Assembly: GCA_903831815.1 (NCBI GenBank)
Contig: CAIKZC010000002.1
Coordinates: 7,244 to 71,243 of the forward strand
From: an uncultured bacterium
Lineage (GTDB): Bacteria; Patescibacteriota; Minisyncoccia; Phycocordibacterales; UBA11359
Reading direction: 5' to 3'
DNA length: 64,000 bases
The notes beneath the pieces are model-generated. The model was not told the origin of the DNA, made no database searches, and saw only the letters and a program-made list of their open reading frames with translations. Position numbers and translations under genes: made by a program. This document shows positions 1-47,546 of the stretch, one piece after another. Positions within the stretch are counted from its first letter, which is position 1. Every line of letters starts with the position of its first letter.

Positions 1-551
1 TTGCTTTGGTTAAACAAGGTTAACGCTTCGTTACCATCTCCGAAATCACTTGAAGAAATGTTCGCTAAACTATTATTCAAAATGATGGCTGTACCTTTTA
101 GATCATCGGCCACTAAATGGTCAATTTGTAAATTTTCTCCATTAGCAAAAATTGCTTGATTAGAACCTTTCAAATTCATGTGAGAAAGTGTCGATGTCCC
201 GTGGCTAAAATAGATATTCCAGTCATCATTTTCCGTGTTAGAAGAAAAATAGACCGGCAAATTTTCAGTACCGTTTACATTCAAACTGCCCAAAACCGTC
301 ATTGACCCTTTTGCGCCAGAATCATCATTAGCAAATTTAATTTCAACTCCTGGGTCTACCGACAAAGTAGCTCCTTCATATATGACCATGCCGCCTCGCA
401 CTACATACGGACTATTCACCAAATCCAAAGTAAGATTTGTGGATATTTCAGCAGGAATATTAGTATCCGCGAAAGTGACCGTTACACTAAAAAATAAACT
501 TACTAGTAAAAAGCTGATAAATACGATACCTGCATAAAATAATTTTTTCAT
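1..551 (-). CDS. secreted surface protein with beta-helix-like Gly/Asn/Ser-rich repeats; start codon inside window, C-terminus beyond the window edge (partial)
   Basis: ATG at 551..549. The frame stays open down to position 1. N-terminal signal peptide MKKLFYAGIVFISFLLVSLFFSVTVTFA. Repetitive G/N/S/T-rich beta-strand-like segments. Absent from the ORF track because it is truncated by the window edge. Confidence 0.5.
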   Translation of the reverse strand, partial: MKKLFYAGIVFISFLLVSLFFSVTVTFADTNIPAEISTNLTLDLVNSPYVVRGGMVIYEGATLSVDPGVEIKFANDDSGAKGSMTVLGSLNVNGTENLPVYFSSNTENDDWNIYFSHGTSTLSHMNLKGSNQAIFANGENLQIDHLVADDLKGTAIILNNSLANISSSDFGDGNEALTLFNQS

Positions 552-576
552 GCAGAAATCATAAACAAGCACCCCT

Positions 577-613
577 AAAATATTTATAAAAAAATATTAA
601 AGAAATTCTAAAA
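577..613 (-). promoter_or_regulatory. shared AT-rich promoter-like motif, copy 1, upstream of the 1..551 gene
   Basis: TAAAATATTTATAAAAAAATATTAAAGAAATTCTAAA, near-identical to copy 2 at 13306..13341. Read on the gene sense strand it contains TTTAGAATTTC...TTTTTTTATAAATATTTTA, a -10-like TATAAAT box, about 25-60 nt before the ATG. Confidence 0.45.
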
Positions 614-856
614 ATTTTCTAAAGAAAAAATAAAGCAGCCATATGCTATCTTTAGAAAGATTTTATTTCTCGTTCATTAGTATTTTCTACAGAATTTCAG
701 AATATTATTATCGCGCTGCCACCGAAGCGTCGATACTATCTTGATAATATCCGGAAAAGGCCATTATGGCGAAACTCACGCTTATAATAAGTATGAAACC
801 AATCGCGAACCTAAAAAAAGTTTTGTCGAAAAGGTCTAACATGAAATAATTATAAC

Positions 857-2848: not shown

Positions 2849-4711
2849 CTAGTAAGCTGGGGTCTCAACTAGATTTGCAATAGCAGTATTTGCTACGTTC
2901 GTGATTGTACCACGTACTAATCCAGTTACACCACCGGCAGATGCCAACTTTACAGTAAGAGTAAAGTTTGCAGTATCACCAGCAGAGATGGTGAAGTCAT
3001 TCGAACCATCCTTTGTCAAATCAGTGCTGTCAAGTACAGCATCAGTTGTAGTTGCGCCTGTAACATTGAAGACGACAACCTTTGCGCCAGCTGATTGGCT
3101 AGCCTGACCTGATGTCTTTCCAGTACCGAACTGATCTTGTGAAAGGGTAATATCGCTGTCACCCAAAGCTGCAACTTGGAAGGTCATCTTTAGGGTTCCA
3201 TCAATATGATCAGTTACGTTTGGAGCTACGTAAGAGCTAGATACAAGTCGTACCTGTGGTCCTGCGATAGCGAATGATTGTGTTTCGCCAGCTGCTGAAC
3301 CGGTAGGATTGATAGCATCGCCATTTGAATCCTCAGGAGCAAAAGCATCTGTTGAATCTGTATAACTTACAGAAGCAGTAGCTGCATCGCTTGATCCGAA
3401 GTTGGTTGAATCATTAACAGTTGCGTAAACACGGAAGACTGCAGTTGTGTTTGCGGCAATATTGAATGTGTCATCCAAGTTGAATGTAGCTGCTTGACCA
3501 CTTGTAAGTGTTGATCCATCGATAGTTGCGAGAACGGTTGAACCATTTCGAAGTTGCAATTCACCAATAACTCCTGGAGTACTTGTAGAAGTAGTTGGAG
3601 TTACTTGAATTGAATCGAATGATACAGCTGAATCGCTAGCCTTGACTTTGAATTCAAGCATCAAAACATCCTTTGTTGAAGCGGTGTCTGATACTTCAAC
3701 TCTCTGTGCTAATGGACTTCCTGAACCCTTTGAAACAACAACTTTAGCATTGCCTGATAGGGCTAGGCTAGTGAATTTGAAGGTCGCAGTTTGTGAGTTT
3801 GGATTCTCGGTAAGAATAGCACCAGTCGAATCTGTGAATCGAATGTTGCTGACAGTAAGAGTCCAGTTTGCATTAAAGTCGGTGGTGTCGATATTTTCGA
3901 CAGCATCAACAGTGACATAGAAGGTCTTCTTGTTGCCTGAACCGTCTCGAACAACTGCGTTTGAAAGCGAAATTGTCTTTGAGTAGGCATTACCAGACTT
4001 CGTGAAGTCAGCTACATCAGCTGAACCGATCTTGGTTGAACCATCCCATACGCTAACAGTGTTAACATATCGGCTAAGTCGTAGTGATGATGCGCTTGCG
4101 CCATCAGCTAGGAAGCTAACCTTAACGCTGGTAACAGCGATGTCAGATCCATCAGCCTCAACCTTGAAGCCGTAAACCTTAACATTGCTTGAACCTTCGT
4201 CAACAGATGACTCAACATCAGTTGCGGTCTTTGTAACAGTTGCGCTACCTGCGCCACCATTAAGAGAACCGTTTGATGCGCCTGGAGCTGACATACAGTT
4301 GCTTGCCAATGTCATACCATTTGGACATAGAGCACCTGCAGCTGCGCCTGGGGCAGTTGAACAGTTACTTGCTAGTGTCTTGCCATTTGGGCAAAGAGCA
4401 CCTGCAGCTGGAGCGCCGTTAAGAGCACCTCGAGTTATAGAACCAACGAAACCAGCTGCTGGCGTAATGCCATTTGCAACTTGGTATTTGATAACAGCAG
4501 CCTTTGTTGCAGCACCGAAGTATCCCATGCTGACGCCAGCTGGCATTGTCAAATAACCACCGCTAACGAGGGTTGTTTGAAGTGCAACTACGTCTGCACC
4601 TGTACTACCAACTGTAAGATTTGTATTGATTGCTGCGCTTGCAACAGTTGTGATGGTCAAAGCCATTGCAACTACGAAAGCTACGGCAAGAATTTTTGTA
4701 GATAATTTCAT
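2849..4711 (-). CDS. cell-surface protein: signal peptide, N-terminal peptidoglycan-binding domain, Cys-containing tandem repeats, long Ser/Thr-rich Ig-like region
   Basis: MKLSTKILAVAFVVAMALTITTVASA signal peptide. VVALQTTLVSGGYLTMPAGVSMGYFGAATKAAVIKYQVANGITPAAGFVGSITRGAL matches the PG-binding fold. Repeated APAAGALCPNGKTLASNCSTAPG units. Confidence 0.7.
   Translation of the reverse strand: MKLSTKILAVAFVVAMALTITTVASAAINTNLTVGSTGADVVALQTTLVSGGYLTMPAGVSMGYFGAATKAAVIKYQVANGITPAAGFVGSITRGALNGAPAAGALCPNGKTLASNCSTAPGAAAGALCPNGMTLASNCMSAPGASNGSLNGGAGSATVTKTATDVESSVDEGSSNVKVYGFKVEADGSDIAVTSVKVSFLADGASASSLRLSRYVNTVSVWDGSTKIGSADVADFTKSGNAYSKTISLSNAVVRDGSGNKKTFYVTVDAVENIDTTDFNANWTLTVSNIRFTDSTGAILTENPNSQTATFKFTSLALSGNAKVVVSKGSGSPLAQRVEVSDTASTKDVLMLEFKVKASDSAVSFDSIQVTPTTSTSTPGVIGELQLRNGSTVLATIDGSTLTSGQAATFNLDDTFNIAANTTAVFRVYATVNDSTNFGSSDAATASVSYTDSTDAFAPEDSNGDAINPTGSAAGETQSFAIAGPQVRLVSSSYVAPNVTDHIDGTLKMTFQVAALGDSDITLSQDQFGTGKTSGQASQSAGAKVVVFNVTGATTTDAVLDSTDLTKDGSNDFTISAGDTANFTLTVKLASAGGVTGLVRGTITNVANTAIANLVETPAY
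4297..4415 (-). repeat. in-frame tandem direct repeat, 2 x about 57 bp, inside the 2849..4711 CDS
   Basis: Near-identical 57-bp units (..CCATTTGGRCAWAGAGCACCTGCAGCTG..) encoding the duplicated Cys-containing ALCPNG(K/M)TLASNC peptide. Confidence 0.6.
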
Positions 4712-6073: not shown

Positions 6074-6301
6074 ATTAGTGTTTTAAATGTCTTATATAGA
6101 TTACGTGTCCTTTACTTACCTGTCCTATAACATTTCCACCTGTCTTTTAAAATAAATTAGAACGAATTTATGTCCATTATAGTATAGGACAAAGTTGAGC
6201 GTCAATATATACAAATTTGATAAATGTGCTCTTGATAGGGCACACTATCTTAAGATAAGATAAAATCTTTCTTGAGGTCTTTATGGAAATTTTAATATTT
6301 C

Positions 6302-6327
6302 TTTAGAATTTTTTTATAAATATTTTA
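6302..6327 (+). promoter_or_regulatory. shared AT-rich promoter-like motif, copy 3 (shorter), upstream of ftsK
   Basis: TTTAGAATTTTTTTATAAATATTTTA 57 nt before the ftsK ATG. Same gene-relative orientation as copies 1 and 2. Confidence 0.4.
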
Positions 6328-6383
6328 TCCCCTCTAGTATATGTTTATTATGTCCTCGTATGATATTATTACTCTAAACACAT

Positions 6384-10139: not shown

Positions 10140-10150
10140 ATAAATCGCTA

Positions 10151-10247
10151 CAAACAGGCAGTCCTGAGGGCACAGGTAAATTTCCTGCTGGAAATTTCCT
10201 TCACACTCGCGCCGTCGCGCTCCGTGAGTCCCTCAGGACTGCCTGTT
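10151..10247 (+). repeat. structured palindromic repeat element, copy A (about 100 nt; 68-nt conserved core with two internal hairpins; outer 19-bp stem)
   Basis: AAACAGGCAGTCCTGAGGG-[core GGGCACAGGTAAATTTCCTGCTGGAAATTTCCTTCACACTCGCGCCGTCGCGCTCCGTGAGTCCCTC]-AGGACTGCCTGTTT then TTTCGCTTT. Lies 12 nt after the recA stop, same orientation as recA. Four related copies elsewhere in the window. Confidence 0.8.
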
Positions 10248-10585
10248 TTTCGCTTTACCTCCTCTTCACTTGCATTTGCGAATCATCTGAGTAGTATGAT
10301 AAACAGAAATGATTGTTCTAATACCCTCTAACCTTGGGAGACTTATCCATGAGAACTTCAGTGTGGCCCGATTGGTTTCATCATCACGGAACCAAAGTCC
10401 GCGTCAAAGACGGATGCTCTCCAAATCTACTCATTCTGGAAAGTAGCGCCGGAAGTCTGGTGATACGGCGAAAGAGCGACAACAAATGGACTGTGGACTG
10501 GTAAGTCAGCCAATCCGAGGAAACAGGTGAATTTTCGACCGGAAGACGAATCTTCACGTCAGATGAACTTCGGATTGCCTTTGGA

Positions 10586-11859: not shown

Positions 11860-11914
11860 ATGGGTTTATAATAACACACTGTTTGATGATTTGTTGTGCA
11901 CATCTTTTGCGGAC

Positions 11915-12010
11915 GAGAGTGCCTATGCAGGGACTCACGGAGCGCGACTGGCGCGAGTGTGAAGGCAATTTTCAGCAGAAAATTGACCTGTGCCCTGCAT
12001 AGGCACTCTT
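11915..12010 (-). repeat. structured palindromic repeat element, copy B (reverse orientation, downstream of rpsR)
   Basis: Outer 17-bp perfect stem AGAGTGCCTATGCAGGG / CCCTGCATAGGCACTCT. Core is about 90% identical to copy A. Hairpin 1 is changed to CAATTTTC-TGCT-GAAAATTG, compensatory relative to A's AAATTTCC-TGCT-GGAAATTT. Confidence 0.8.
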
Positions 12011-12028
12011 GGTAGCAAAAGTAATACA

Positions 12029-12057
12029 CAAAAAAACCACCGAGCGGTGGTTTTTTT
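12029..12057 (-). terminator. bidirectional rho-independent terminator downstream of rpsR
   Basis: AAAAAAACCACCG-AGC-GGTGGTTTTTTT. Confidence 0.7.
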
Positions 12058-12070
12058 GTTAATTCGCAAA

Positions 12071-13248: not shown

Positions 13249-13305
13249 AAATTACAGCCTATCACAGGCCTTTTGGTTATGCAATAGTTATAGCAAATTA
13301 GGGTT

Positions 13306-13341
13306 AAAATATTTATAAAAAAATTATAAAGAAATTCTAAA
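13306..13341 (-). promoter_or_regulatory. shared AT-rich promoter-like motif, copy 2, upstream of rpsF-ssb-rpsR
   Basis: TAAAATATTTATAAAAAAATTATAAAGAAATTCTAAA, 34/37 identical to copy 1. 58 nt upstream of the rpsF ATG. Overlaps the 3' end of tatD. Confidence 0.5.
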
Positions 13342-14145
13342 GATTTTTAGAGCGTTATTTACAAGATTTTTTTTCATTTCTTCTGTTGAAATACCCTTTA
13401 TTTGAGCCATTTTTTCGACTACTTGTTCAACATAGGACGGTTCGTTGCGTTCACCTCGATGTGGAATTGGAGCCACAAACGGCGCATCAGTCTCACTCAT
13501 AATCATATCAAGCGGAGCGTATTTTACCGCTTCATCATAGGCTTTTACAAAAGTTATGACGCCGGTAAACGATACGGAAAAACCAAGATTCAGGTATTTT
13601 TGCTCAATTTCTGTTGTCCCCGTGAAAAAGTGGGCATTACCCCGCAATTTTTCGCCGTATATTTTCTTTTTTGCCGCTAAAATATCCAAAACATCTTCGT
13701 GAGCATTGCGCACATGCAACATCATCGGTTTGTCATACTTCGCCGCAAAGTCGATTTGTTTTTCAAAATCTTTTTTCTGGCGAATTTTATCTGCTTCGGT
13801 AATTGTGTCGCTCGGAATATTAGGATCATTTTTCGATCGACCGTAATCCAAACCACACTCACCTATCGCTACCACTTTTGGATGCACGACCAGTTTTGCA
13901 AACCCCTCTTCATTAAAAGTTTGTGTCGACACATCATCAGGACCATCGTGTGGATGAAGCCCGATAGCTGTATAAACATTTTTATGTTTCTCGGCAATTT
14001 CAATCTCTTTTTTTGAAGTTTCCAAATTTACGCCGACACTAATCGTCCAAACTCCCCTTTCCAACATACGAGCAATAACCTCCTCACGATCCTTGTCGTA
14101 GTCGGGAAAATGCAAATGTGAATGGATATCAAAAAATTCAGGCAT
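13324..14145 (-). CDS. tatD: TatD-family metal-dependent DNase/hydrolase
   Basis: FDIHSHLHF start motif, conserved His/Asp/Glu positions, 273 aa. Confidence 0.8.
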   Translation of the reverse strand: MPEFFDIHSHLHFPDYDKDREEVIARMLERGVWTISVGVNLETSKKEIEIAEKHKNVYTAIGLHPHDGPDDVSTQTFNEEGFAKLVVHPKVVAIGECGLDYGRSKNDPNIPSDTITEADKIRQKKDFEKQIDFAAKYDKPMMLHVRNAHEDVLDILAAKKKIYGEKLRGNAHFFTGTTEIEQKYLNLGFSVSFTGVITFVKAYDEAVKYAPLDMIMSETDAPFVAPIPHRGERNEPSYVEQVVEKMAQIKGISTEEMKKNLVNNALKIFRISL

Positions 14146-34227: not shown

Positions 34228-34770
34228 TCACCCGACACAACGAAGCAACTGGTCACAACCGAAAACAATCTTGCGATTCATGTCCCACCACTTGTCCCAT
34301 GGTCTGGCGACTTCAGCCTGAAGACAAAGCCGGCCATGATCATCTCCAAAGATCCTTAGGATGCAAGGATCGCTCGCCGAATCAAGGCGTTGATTCATGA
34401 CAAACCACAGGTCAATGCCCCTGTAAGTCGGCCGGCGGCTAAGGTGAACTGCGACAGCCAAAACGGCCTCGCTTGGACAGATCCGACCGCCTATACTTGG
34501 AATGTAACTCCAGATCTCGTGAGTGGCGGGGATGGATTCAAACAGCATATCGAGGCGAGCCGCAGCCAAATTGAGCGGTATCACACTTCGACACAGGCTA
34601 CTGAATCCCCTACTTTTGATCACGAAGTCGGCCTCCGGCAAAACATGAACGCCCACGGCATTCAAAATAAGTGCCCATTCATCCTCTGTTTTGTATGCCG
34701 CTTCGATCTGCATCCAAAACATTTCACGCGCACTTCTGACAGTACGTTTCTGGATTGTCATCTGTGACAT
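34228..34770 (-). CDS. GC-richer hypothetical protein (about 180 aa)
   Basis: RBS AGGAGG 7 nt before ATGTCACAGATG (MSQMTIQ...). Strong terminator downstream. No domain recognised. Confidence 0.45.
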   Translation of the reverse strand: MSQMTIQKRTVRSAREMFWMQIEAAYKTEDEWALILNAVGVHVLPEADFVIKSRGFSSLCRSVIPLNLAAARLDMLFESIPATHEIWSYIPSIGGRICPSEAVLAVAVHLSRRPTYRGIDLWFVMNQRLDSASDPCILRIFGDDHGRLCLQAEVARPWDKWWDMNRKIVFGCDQLLRCVG

Positions 34771-34884
34771 CGCGCATTCCTCCTGAAAAGAACTCCGTTT
34801 AAAATTCAAAACGATTGACGCTGACATTAATTAAACGTCCGCCAGATTACATTGTCAACGAATAAGTATTTAAAAAACAAAGTA

Positions 34885-34980
34885 AAAGAGCAGTTTTGAG
34901 GGACTCACGGAGCGCGACGGCGCGAGTGTGAAGGAAATTTCCAGCAGGAAATTTACCTGTGCCCTCAAAACTGCTCTTTT
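34885..34980 (-). repeat. structured palindromic repeat element, copy C (reverse orientation, 3' of rplK)
   Basis: Core identical to copy A over 68 nt. Outer 19-bp stem AAAAGAGCAGTTTTGAGGG / CCCTCAAAACTGCTCTTTT. T-run on the minus strand after the element. Confidence 0.8.
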
Positions 34981-35002
34981 ACTTTGCTTTCTACTCTTTT
35001 TA

Positions 35003-35428
35003 TTATTTAACCACCTCCACCCCCATCGATCGTGCCGATCCTTCAATGATCTTCATAGCGGCTTCAATATCGTTGGCGTTTAGATCAGGAAGTTTCTTTT
35101 CAGCTATTACACGAATTTGAGCTTTGGTAATCTTGCCGGCTTTGGTAATTTTGTTCTTGCCGGAACCTTTCTCGATCTTGATAGCCTTAAGAATCATGTT
35201 GGAAGCAGGCTCAGTCTTGTAGGTCATCTTGTAGGTACGATCCTCGAAAACTTCGATGATCGTAGGTACATTTTCACCGGCGCGAGCTTTGGTTTCGTCG
35301 TTAAAACGCTTGACGAATTCGCCAATGTTAATACCGGCCTGACCTAGAGCAGGACCGAGAGCTTGTCCGGGAACGGCTTTACCGCCGGGAATAATCAATT
35401 TTAATCTTTTTGTAACTTTTTTTGCCAT
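35003..35428 (-). CDS. rplK: 50S ribosomal protein L11
   Basis: MAKKVTKRLKLIIPGGKAVPGQALGPALGQAGINIGEFVKRFN... is the uL11 signature. Confidence 0.95.
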   Translation of the reverse strand: MAKKVTKRLKLIIPGGKAVPGQALGPALGQAGINIGEFVKRFNDETKARAGENVPTIIEVFEDRTYKMTYKTEPASNMILKAIKIEKGSGKNKITKAGKITKAQIRVIAEKKLPDLNANDIEAAMKIIEGSARSMGVEVVK

Positions 35429-44867: not shown

Positions 44868-44895
44868 GAAATAATAGCTGTAAAAAGAAAAAGTA

Positions 44896-44990
44896 AAAAG
44901 CAGTTTTGTGGGCACAGGTAAATTTCCTGCTGGAAATTTCCTTCACACTCGGCCCGTCGGCCTCCGTGAGTCCCTCAAAACTGCTTTTTA
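44896..44990 (+). repeat. structured palindromic repeat element, copy D (3' of nrdJ, between convergent genes)
   Basis: Core identical to A except hairpin 2 reads GGCC-CGTC-GGCC instead of GCGC-CGTC-GCGC, which is compensatory. Outer stem AAAAAGCAGTTTTGTGGG / CCCTCAAAACTGCTTTTT followed by a T-run. Confidence 0.8.
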
Positions 44991-44998
44991 CTTTTTCT

Positions 44999-46270: not shown

Positions 46271-46303
46271 GATCAAAGTGCAGAAAAGATAGAGAAGAAA
46301 AAA

Positions 46304-46406
46304 GTAGAAAAGCAGCTCTCGAAGCACACGGAAATCGCCTTACTGGCGATTTCCTTATCCTCGCGCCAGTCGCGCTGCGGAGTGCTTCTGCGAGTTGCTT
46401 TTCTAC
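46304..46406 (+). repeat. structured palindromic repeat element, copy E (divergent variant; between convergent genes, overlapping the rarA stop region)
   Basis: Outer stem of about 24 bp, GTAGAAAAGCAGCTCTCGAAGCAC / GTGCTTCTGCGAGTTGCTTTTCTAC (a few mismatches). Hairpin 1 GGAAATCGCC-TTACTG-GCGATTTCC. Hairpin 2 CTCGCGCCAGTCGCGCT conserved. Followed by TTTTTAGTTTTT. Confidence 0.7.
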
Positions 46407-46409
46407 TTT

Positions 46410-47546
46410 TTAGTTTTTCTTATAGTATTTCTTGCCTTTCAATTTCTCCGGCAATAAGTCTTCCTTGGTATATTTCTCATAACCTTTTCCGTAATCAAGA
46501 TCTTTCATGAGTTTAGTTGGAGCATTCAGAATATTTAAAGGTATTGGCAAATTACCGAATTTTTTAGCGTCATCCAAAGCAGTCATGTAGGCATAATATG
46601 CCGACTTGTTTTTTGGCGCTTGTGAAAGATATACGACACCATGTCCCAAATTGATTCCCGCTTCGGGATATCCTATCGTCTCTACTGCTCTAAACACCGC
46701 ATTGGCCAACACCAAAGCGTGAGGGTCTTCCATACCGACATCTTCACTGGCAAAAATCACCATGCGCCGAGCAATAAATTTTGGGTCCTCCCCCGCTTCG
46801 ACCATACGAGCCAGATAATACAGCGCCGCATCCGGTTGACTGGCTCGCATGCTTTTTATAAAAGCGCTGATGGTGTTGTAGTGTTCATCGCCTTTTTTGT
46901 CATAACGCAAATATTTCGATTGCAGAGATTTCTTGAAATTTTCTATTGTCATCTCTCCGTACAATCTTTCGGTATTTTCGATCAAAGCGATAGCTTGTCG
47001 AGCATCACCACCCGATGCCGCCACGAGCCAATCCTCCACCTCTTTCGAAATATCAAAACCTGTACGTCCGATAATTGTTTTTATTTCATTCTCGGCCAAT
47101 TCGTTGAGCACAAAAACTTGGCAACGCGAGAGAAGTGCCGGGATAACTTCAAAACTCGGATTTTCGGTCGTTGCACCGATTAAAGTCAATTTACCGGATT
47201 CAACATAAGGCAAAAGAAAATCTTGTTGAGCTTTATTAAATCGATGAATCTCATCGAGAAACAATATTTTGGCGCCAAAAAGTCCGGCCGGTGCATTCAC
47301 GATTTCTCGAATATCATCTTTTCCGGCCGACACCGCCGAGAGCTCATGATATTCAGCCTTGAGCGATTTGGCGTATATTCTAGCCAACGTCGTCTTGCCG
47401 ACTCCGGGCGGTCCCCATAAAATAAAAGAGAAAAGATGTTTTTTGGCCACAGCAACGCCGATCGGTTTATCATCCCCGACCAAATGTTCCTGCCCGACAA
47501 ATTCAGAAAGGTCTTTCGGCCGTATCTTTGAAGCCAGCGGTTCCAT
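46410..47546 (-). CDS. rarA: replication-associated recombination protein A (AAA+ ATPase RarA/MgsA)
   Basis: Walker [10 protein letters not shown], Walker [11 protein letters not shown], sensor and arginine-finger regions, C-terminal MgsA helical domain. Confidence 0.85.

Follow-up and report, generated by a model that had tools for sequence, protein, structure and literature searches.

Copy B, on the minus strand at positions 11907 to 12018 of the window (the whole stretch of 64,000 nt analysed here), is a member of a previously undescribed family of palindromic intergenic repeats, roughly 100–140 bp long, found in a small group of CPR/Paceibacteria-like bacteria of ultra-small size. Compensatory Watson-Crick change maintains every helix of this element, which we refer to as the Y-element; the constraint is strand-symmetric, and the core has no conserved orientation relative to its neighbouring genes. 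A strand-symmetric DNA repeat of the terminator zone accounts for the evidence better than a functional RNA made from one strand. On our preferred reading, to which as a whole we assign a probability of about 0.45, the Y-element would be a palindromic repeat akin to the REP, ERIC and Correia elements, one that often doubles as a bidirectional terminator and whose 60-nt core is probably bound by a putative factor.

Copies of the element in the window

Five copies, A to E, lie in the window. Their positions are given below, together with the component parts of copy B and the terminator that adjoins it.

10147..10253, plus strand: copy A (10153-10247), starting 8 nt after the recA stop codon
10147-10151 and 10249-10253: closing helix and small internal loop of copy A
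11907..12018, minus strand: copy B, whole element, covariance-model score 107.9 bits
11907-11915 and 12010-12018: closing helix and small internal loop of copy B
11916..11932, minus strand: copy B outer stem, 3' arm on the element (minus) strand, pairing with 11993-12009
11942..11954, minus strand: copy B hairpin 2, GCGC-CAGUC-GCGC
11966..11985, minus strand: copy B hairpin 1, CAAUUUUC-UGCU-GAAAAUUG, with two compensated pair changes relative to A, C and D
11993..12009, minus strand: copy B outer stem, 5' arm on the element (minus) strand
12028..12059, minus strand: canonical bidirectional intrinsic terminator belonging to the rpsF-ssb-rpsR operon, adjoining copy B on its upstream side and part of a unit that B has in common with copy L003
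34871..34993, minus strand: copy C (about 34883-34981), some 10 nt after the rplK stop codon
44880..45002, plus strand: copy D (44893-44991), between a convergent ribonucleotide reductase gene (stop 44867) and a VTT-domain gene (stop 44999)
46294..46416, plus strand: copy E (about 46306-46404), between a convergent SPW-repeat gene (stop 46270) and mgsA/rarA (stop 46410)

From 12010 to 11915, the minus strand of the window reads AGAGTGCCTATGCAGGG-CACAGGT-CAATTTTC-TGCT-GAAAATTG-CCTTCACACTCGCGCCAGTCGCGCTCCGTGAGT-CCCTGCATAGGCACTCT. The preliminary description had quoted the hairpins and stems of the copies, and its sequences were all found where they were said to be, those of copy B on the minus strand. 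Proceeding inwards, copy B consists of a closing helix (TTGC/GCAA), a small internal loop, a 17-bp outer stem with arms AGAGTGCCTATGCAGGG and CCCTGCATAGGCACTCT (17/17 paired), and the 60-nt core. Copy A is built in the same order, with a closing helix GC/GC, a 3x3 loop (TAC/TTC) and a perfect 19-bp outer stem (19/19), and it has a T-rich tail. The outer stems of A and B had been called equally perfect and unrelated in sequence; both are indeed perfect, and they are unrelated except for the core-proximal AGGG/CCCT that they have in common.

In many copies (A and B, as well as L003, L004, L005 and L030 from related organisms) the main stem is followed on its outer side by a pyrimidine-rich internal loop of about 3x3 nt (TAC/TTC, TGC/TCC or TCC/TTC) and then by a closing helix of 2-4 bp (GC/GC, TTGC/GCAA or GAC/GTC). 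The element therefore extends beyond the coordinates that it was originally given.

Copy C has a long stem flanked by A/T tracts and a core identical to that of A, and it is the sole hairpin before the next gene. Hairpin 2 of copy D is GGCC/GGCC, and the core of copy E is of a diverged type. Direct reading of the arms of C against those of D reveals a 1-bp deletion present on both arms, that is, a compensated indel. A covariance model built from the copies and run over the whole window found no sixth copy.

All copies share a Y-shaped fold, comprising an outer stem of 17-35 bp, a hairpin 1 of the form AGG-U-8 bp-tetraloop, and a hairpin 2 with a UCAC/GUGA base, an internal loop and 4 bp. Folding each of the five window copies yields z-scores from -7.3 to -9.7, and the 200 shuffles include none that folds equally well; across the family the z-scores range from -7 to -10. 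Each copy folds into this Y whichever strand is taken, both as RNA and as single-stranded DNA; the outer stem and hairpin 1 are free in sequence but paired, and hairpin 2 is a helix of 4 bp.

Elsewhere in the window, a tandem 66-nt direct repeat (71% identity, 4263-4394) lies inside a 620-aa open reading frame on the minus strand (2849-4711), where it is presumably a repeated protein module.

Relatives of the element in other genomes

Twelve distinct copies were found in total: the five in the window and seven in related metagenome or MAG contigs, which we label L002, L003, L004, L005, L013, L023 and L030. A pattern taken from the 3' half of the core, run against 185,579 species genomes, retrieved a single MAG contig (L002); it also retrieved three metagenome contigs (L003 to L005), and its remaining matches were due to chance. 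L013 and L023 were found by fetching the contigs of close L11 relatives, and both of these copies lie directly after rplK. L030 was found by a protein search with four open-frame translations of the core. A cyanobacterial pattern match (L001) has no structure, and we regard it as due to chance.

For the L11 protein of the host (the product of rplK), the closest match is 93% identical, and the matching proteins carry the names Paceibacterota, Taylorbacteria or Parcubacteria. No element was found in the contigs of more distant L11 relatives (83-87% identity). A search of the whole window against Rfam at the gathering threshold returned tRNAs only, and permissive E-value searches with copy A, copy E and the L003, L004, L022 and L023 sequences returned only far sub-threshold matches to miRNA precursors, which arise because the element is a long hairpin. 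Phages and plasmids gave no blastn match. We also reject a viral origin, since three pattern scans of viral contigs were either empty or produced matches that failed the covariance model or were G+C-rich without such a fold.

The arms fall into two subfamilies, A, C, D and E sharing GCAGT and B, L003 and L005 sharing AGTG. Within the second of these, homology between the units of B and L003 takes in the terminator, the spacer TTTGCTAC, the arms, the core and the closing helix, although B follows rpsR and L003 follows rplK. Between these two copies about 28% of arm positions differ, almost all with compensation, and the core differs at about 3%; on this comparison the arms evolve about eight times faster than the core and still keep their pairing. 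The A-type core of about 60 nt is 97-100% identical, unpaired bases included, in nine of the twelve copies (those of the A type in the window, L002 to L005 and L030), whereas the rplK genes of the window, L003 and L013 are only 81-84% identical at the nucleotide level. The Y architecture is kept in the strongly diverged core types of E, L013 and L023.

Several metagenome contigs of the same or related organisms end inside or just after an element (the ends of L009, L026, L027 and L005). Such contig ends are the signature of a multi-copy repeat that breaks assemblies, and this is probably also why the pattern scans recovered so few copies.

At the rplK 3' site of a 93%-identical L11 relative we observed a different long hairpin of 147 nt (L022:872-1018, z-score -6.4). 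The base of its outer stem resembles that of C, D and E (AAAGTAAAA...) and its apex has the form CUC-hairpin-UC; the covariance model misses it. It may be a very distant relative of the family or an independent element.

Compensatory change in the helices

Copies A, C and D have a common hairpin 1, AAATTTCC-TGCT-GGAAATTT, as had been described and as direct reading confirms. In copy B the minus-strand sequence is CAATTTTC-TGCT-GAAAATTG. It had been claimed that three positions change on each arm and that all of them stay Watson-Crick. Pairing is fully kept, but the number of changes is two per arm: at position 1, A becomes C and its partner T8 becomes G (A-U to C-G), and at position 7, C becomes T and its partner G2 becomes A (C-G to U-A). 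Given two changes on the 5' arm, the chance that both partner positions would change to the complement is approximately 1/28 x 1/9 = 0.004, by hand arithmetic. In copy E, hairpin 1 (46330-46354) is GGAAATCGCC-TTACT-GGCGATTTCC, a 10-bp helix unlike A, C and D in sequence; the preliminary description had placed the split between arm and loop one base off, the loop being TTACT.

Covariation over the family was assessed on two alignments: a MAFFT alignment of nine copies with our own structure imposed upon it, and a model-based alignment of eleven copies (L030, found afterwards, is excluded). In the nine-copy alignment 91% of cells are paired and 25 of 40 pairs are double-changed, and none of 500 shuffles reaches either value. 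In the eleven-copy alignment pairing rises to 95% of cells and double changes to 34 of 40 pairs (0/500 shuffles as high); when the structure is slid along this alignment as a control, pairing drops to 38-54%. The outer stem covaries along with the rest.

Marking the paired columns of hairpin 1 in the eleven-copy alignment, we find that 98% of cells are paired, that 11/11 pairs carry double changes, and that there are eight sequence versions of the helix:

AAAUUUCC/GGAAAUUU
CAAUUUUC/GAAAAUUG
AAAUUUUC/GAAAAUUU
CGUUCCG/CGGAACG
AAAAUUUU/AAAAUUUU
GGAAAUCGCC/GGCGAUUUCC
GCAUAAACCGCC/GGCGGUUUUGC
the L004 intermediate, with a C.A mismatch

Some of these versions form a natural series, from CC/GG in A, through CC/GA with its C.A mismatch in L004, to UC/GA in L003, with B showing the further change from A-U to C-G. 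The hairpin 1 helices of L002, E, L013 and L023 are wholly different. From this covariation we conclude that hairpin 1 is a real, maintained helix.

The stems of hairpin 2 are GCGC/GCGC, GGCC/GGCC, GGAC/GUCC and GGGC/GCCC, so that the two middle pairs covary, while the outer (closing) pairs, the loop C(A)GUC and the flanking UC..UC are invariant in all eleven aligned copies and are kept in L030 as well. On the opposite strand these flanks read GA..GA. In L030 two single changes, A to U and U to A, move the hairpin 2 base to another register, in which 6 bp form (ACUCUC/GAGAGU).

Strand symmetry and the meaning of covariation

The preliminary description implied a strand-specific structured RNA. 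On that account, the element would lie in the 3'-UTR or between cistrons and be transcribed from the forward strand, its stems would covary in the manner of riboswitch or ncRNA P1 helices, and a protein or ligand would recognise hairpin 2 and the three-way junction, for example in mRNA processing, stability or regulation. The strong covariation in all helices speaks for it, as does the conservation of the unpaired junction nucleotides and the invariance of the hairpin 2 loop and flanks in 11/11 aligned copies. By our reading, those flanks would form tandem G.A beside a G.U on the reverse strand, an RNA-like motif. Moreover, all five window copies, as well as the rplK-site copies L003, L013 and L023, are co-oriented with the upstream gene. 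For the window alone, 5/5 has a probability of about 1/16 to 1/32, a hint of some polarity linked to transcription in the window genome, although the same is not true of all loci elsewhere.

A strand-specific RNA is expected to keep a consistent orientation and to show an excess of G.U pairs on its functional strand, and we find neither. Among the eleven aligned copies, 409 of 436 cells (94%) are Watson-Crick. The wobbles comprise 5 forward G.U and 8 forward A.C, the latter being G.U on the reverse strand, and hence show no strand bias; G.U pairs are also very few for stems that evolve so fast. L030 supplies one more forward wobble, on a strand that is probably untranscribed. Folding of the reverse complement is as good or better, both as RNA and as DNA. 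As for orientation, L004 and L005 are orthologous, with recJ 5' regions about 80% identical and the element about 45 nt upstream of recJ in both, and yet the core points in opposite directions in the two; the 3-nt loops beyond the arms are too short to separate an inversion of the core alone from one of the entire element. The L004 element sits between divergent genes, the L002 core is antisense to clpP and rny, and the L030 core is antisense to both of its neighbours, despite lying about 6 nt after a stop codon.

Three further observations count against a strand-specific RNA. Copies B and L003 have a strong terminator before them and the next promoter after them, a stretch that should see little transcription. 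The forward and reverse hints of an RNA contradict each other. Finally, the element matches no Rfam family. A comparison by eye with consensus features fits the core to none of the hammerhead, twister and pistol ribozymes, the purine riboswitch and the K-turn. We therefore accept the claim that hairpin 1 is a helix maintained by compensatory change, but in view of these observations we do not extend it to a functional RNA helix on one strand. The strand-specific RNA is, in our judgement, unlikely.

It is important to note that in a DNA palindrome a template switch, or correction of one arm by the other, can yield apparently compensatory changes in a single step, so that covariation alone does not suffice to identify a functional RNA helix. 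The compensated 1-bp indel between C and D, for example, is more easily obtained by arm-to-arm DNA templating than by two independent events. Pushed to its limit, this argument would make the element a palindrome without any function, kept perfect by mutation alone, through template switching or arm-to-arm gene conversion during replication, a process that could also invert the spacer. The compensatory changes, those of hairpin 1 included, would then be one-step events that carry no information on function. Such an account agrees with the almost pure Watson-Crick pairing and symmetric wobbles, with the C/D indel, with the inversion of the core between orthologous sites, with the ability of both DNA strands to fold, and with arms that evolve about eight times faster than the core between B and L003 and yet stay paired. 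It leaves unexplained, however, why the A-type core should be 97-100% identical, even at unpaired positions, against 81-84% in rplK; why the same Y recurs in the strongly diverged core types; and why the element is persistently placed right after stop codons. We consider a wholly functionless palindrome quite unlikely.

Position relative to genes and terminators

The start of the element lies 2-25 nt after a stop codon in A (recA), in C, L013 and L023 (rplK), in D (ribonucleotide reductase), in E (the small SPW-repeat gene) and in L030 (a 136-aa gene), and D and E each span exactly the interval between two convergent stop codons. In A, C, D, E, L013 and L023 the stem has an A-rich 5' base and a T-rich 3' base, with no other terminator present, so that, judged by sequence, these six copies form a hairpin followed by a U-tract. 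B and L003 have no T tail and lie beside a separate terminator, and L004 lies between divergent genes. B and L003 are in fact located between a strong bidirectional terminator and the promoter region of the next gene; being behind a canonical terminator and without T tails, they cannot be explained by a terminator role.

On the preferred reading of a strand-symmetric repeat, the element would propagate as DNA and persist within a few nucleotides of the stop codon, in the terminator zone. The majority of copies have A-tract and T-tract stem bases and no further hairpin before the next promoter or convergent gene, and these probably serve as intrinsic terminators, often bidirectional, or as hairpins that protect 3' ends. 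A bidirectional terminator role would select for pairing on both strands. This role does not account for the strong conservation of the unpaired junction nucleotides and of hairpin 2. The core of about 60 nt, with its 97-100% identity in the A-type copies across species whose rplK genes are only 81-84% identical, is most likely the binding site of a putative host or element factor behind its maintenance or spread.

The rplK 3' site can be compared among relatives. A member of the family is present there in the window, L003, L013 and L023, and the other long hairpin is present in L022; in L014 to L018 and L024 the site holds a plain hairpin and T-tract terminator and no element, and divergence is too high to tell insertion from loss. 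We considered whether the element at this site might mimic the autoregulatory L11/L1 target, and we rule this out, since the element is also found after unrelated genes and rplA does not adjoin rplK. In neither the window (34228-35428) nor any fetched relative, L013, L014, L017 and L018 included, is rplK (L11) followed by rplA (L1); the next gene encodes a 199-aa protein or dCTP deaminase. CPR lineages are reported to lack L1, and an rplK without an adjacent rplA would fit that report.

The gene after the L003 copy (L003:870-1403) is ORF6N/anti-repressor-like, of a type typical of phages and mobile elements, which suggests a variable insertion spot downstream of rplK. A conserved AT-rich motif, ...TTCTTTAGAATTTTTTTATAAATATTTTA(T/A)CCC, is found just upstream of the starts of this gene, the rpsF operon, ftsK and the gene to the left of 551:

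543-618, minus strand: AT-rich motif
6278-6346, plus strand: AT-rich motif
13272-13347, minus strand: AT-rich motif
L003, about 820-850, plus strand: AT-rich motif

It resembles a strong promoter or leader motif specific to the clade. A reverse-strand promoter in L003 was considered and rejected, the AT-rich motif there being a forward promoter-like motif of the downstream gene, which precedes rpsF and ftsK in the window as well.

Comparison with known elements

The Y-element has much in common with several known systems. Like REP, BIME and REPIN sequences, it is a dispersed, multi-copy intergenic palindrome that is mostly placed just 3' of genes or between convergent genes, in either orientation; those sequences form hairpins in mRNA or single-stranded DNA and can act as terminators or mRNA stabilisers. 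REPs, however, measure 20-40 nt and conserve both the stem and a 5' GTAG-like tetranucleotide, a REPIN is a doublet of conserved REPs, and both kinds are mobilised by RAYT transposases. In the Y-element it is the arms that vary and the branched 60-nt centre that is conserved, and there is no conserved GTAG-like terminus. Among the genes that adjoin the elements, in the 64 kb of the window genome and at the loci of the relatives, we found no RAYT (Y1 HUH transposase), and a search of the genes neighbouring each copy found no transposase, RAYT-like gene, recombinase or nuclease.

The ERIC/IRU and Correia (NEMIS) elements of enterobacteria and Neisseria are likewise imperfect palindromes, about 100-150 bp long, that occupy transcribed intergenic regions in either orientation and form long RNA hairpins that affect mRNA processing (by RNase III/E) or termination. 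They differ in having conserved terminal inverted repeats, TA target duplications and tens to hundreds of near-identical copies. The termini of the Y-element, unlike those of MITEs and REPs, are its least conserved part; it has a Y fold and a CPR host, and no target-site duplication was seen, there being no flanking direct repeats in A to E, L003 or L013.

Bidirectional intrinsic (Rho-independent) terminators resemble the Y-element in their location just after stop codons, in their symmetric arrangement of A-tract, hairpin and T-tract, in the exact filling of some convergent gaps, and in that a pair must be Watson-Crick to serve both strands. The stems of ordinary terminators are short, unbranched and G+C-rich, with no sequence common across loci, and a branched hairpin of about 100 nt is atypical of them; in addition, the apex of the Y-element is conserved, and two copies without T tails stand beside a separate terminator. 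Integron attC sites, too, are found at the 3' ends of genes, conserve structure rather than sequence, and are imperfect palindromes that work as a folded single strand. In attC, though, the outer R''/R' boxes (RYYYAAC/GTTRRRY) are conserved and the centre is variable, co-orientation is strict, and cassettes form arrays next to intI, whereas the Y-element has variable outer ends, an orientation that is not conserved, and core housekeeping genes on its flanks.

Since the Y-element lacks defining features of REPs, MITEs and attC sites and matches no Rfam family, we class the Y-element as a bacterial intergenic palindromic repeat. Within that class its design, a conserved branched centre between variable arms, is unusual.

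Further alternatives

A more specific proposal, and in our opinion a long shot, is that the Y-element is the recognition site of a putative CPR-specific nucleic-acid-binding or recombination system. Here the protein handle would be the invariant hairpin 2 together with its flanks, arms that evolve freely but stay perfectly paired would allow extrusion of a cruciform or hairpin, and the inversion of the core between its arms, as at the orthologous recJ sites, might be a switch or a step in the propagation cycle. If this were so, the link to recA, the ssb operon, ribonucleotide reductase (RNR), rarA and recJ might be meaningful.

Alternatively, only the core of about 60 nt (GGG...CCC) could be mobile, inserting into the loops of pre-existing hairpins or terminators, so that the outer stems would derive from the target. 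Near-identical cores within differing arms, the presence of elements at terminator positions, and the A/T-tract stem bases that some copies share with ordinary terminators speak for it. But copies of one arm subfamily have homologous arms even where their sites are unrelated (A, C, D and E; B, L003 and L005), and B and L003 stand at different genes with arms, spacer and adjacent terminator in common, that canonical terminator being intact beside the element and not split by it; nor did the rplK sites of relatives yield any empty-site hairpin with matching arms. A mobile core is accordingly very improbable.

Equally hard to credit is a cis-regulatory DNA or RNA module of a DNA-replication and repair regulon, bound by a dedicated regulator: the neighbours do include recA, the rpsF-ssb-rpsR operon, ribonucleotide reductase, mgsA/rarA and recJ, but this grouping is post hoc over eight independent sites in a window that is itself rich in such genes (ftsK, recO, TatD, dCTP deaminase), the other neighbours are rplK, clpP/rny and L25, most copies are 3' of genes and not in promoter regions, and hairpin 1 covaries within one genome, as the operator of a single dimeric regulator would not.

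Implications

The Y-element inverts the design of the classical MITE or REP, in that its branched centre is conserved and its perfectly paired arms are variable. It also offers an unusually clean natural series of compensatory changes, complete with an intermediate, and it serves as a reminder that for palindromic DNA repeats covariation by itself is no proof of a functional RNA helix; the symmetry of wobbles, the orientation at orthologous sites and the position relative to terminators need to be considered alongside it. The element visibly breaks the metagenome assemblies of its host lineage. The genomes of CPR/Patescibacteria are tiny and contain little non-coding DNA, and in such a genome five copies in 64 kb must either pay their way or be an effective genomic parasite.
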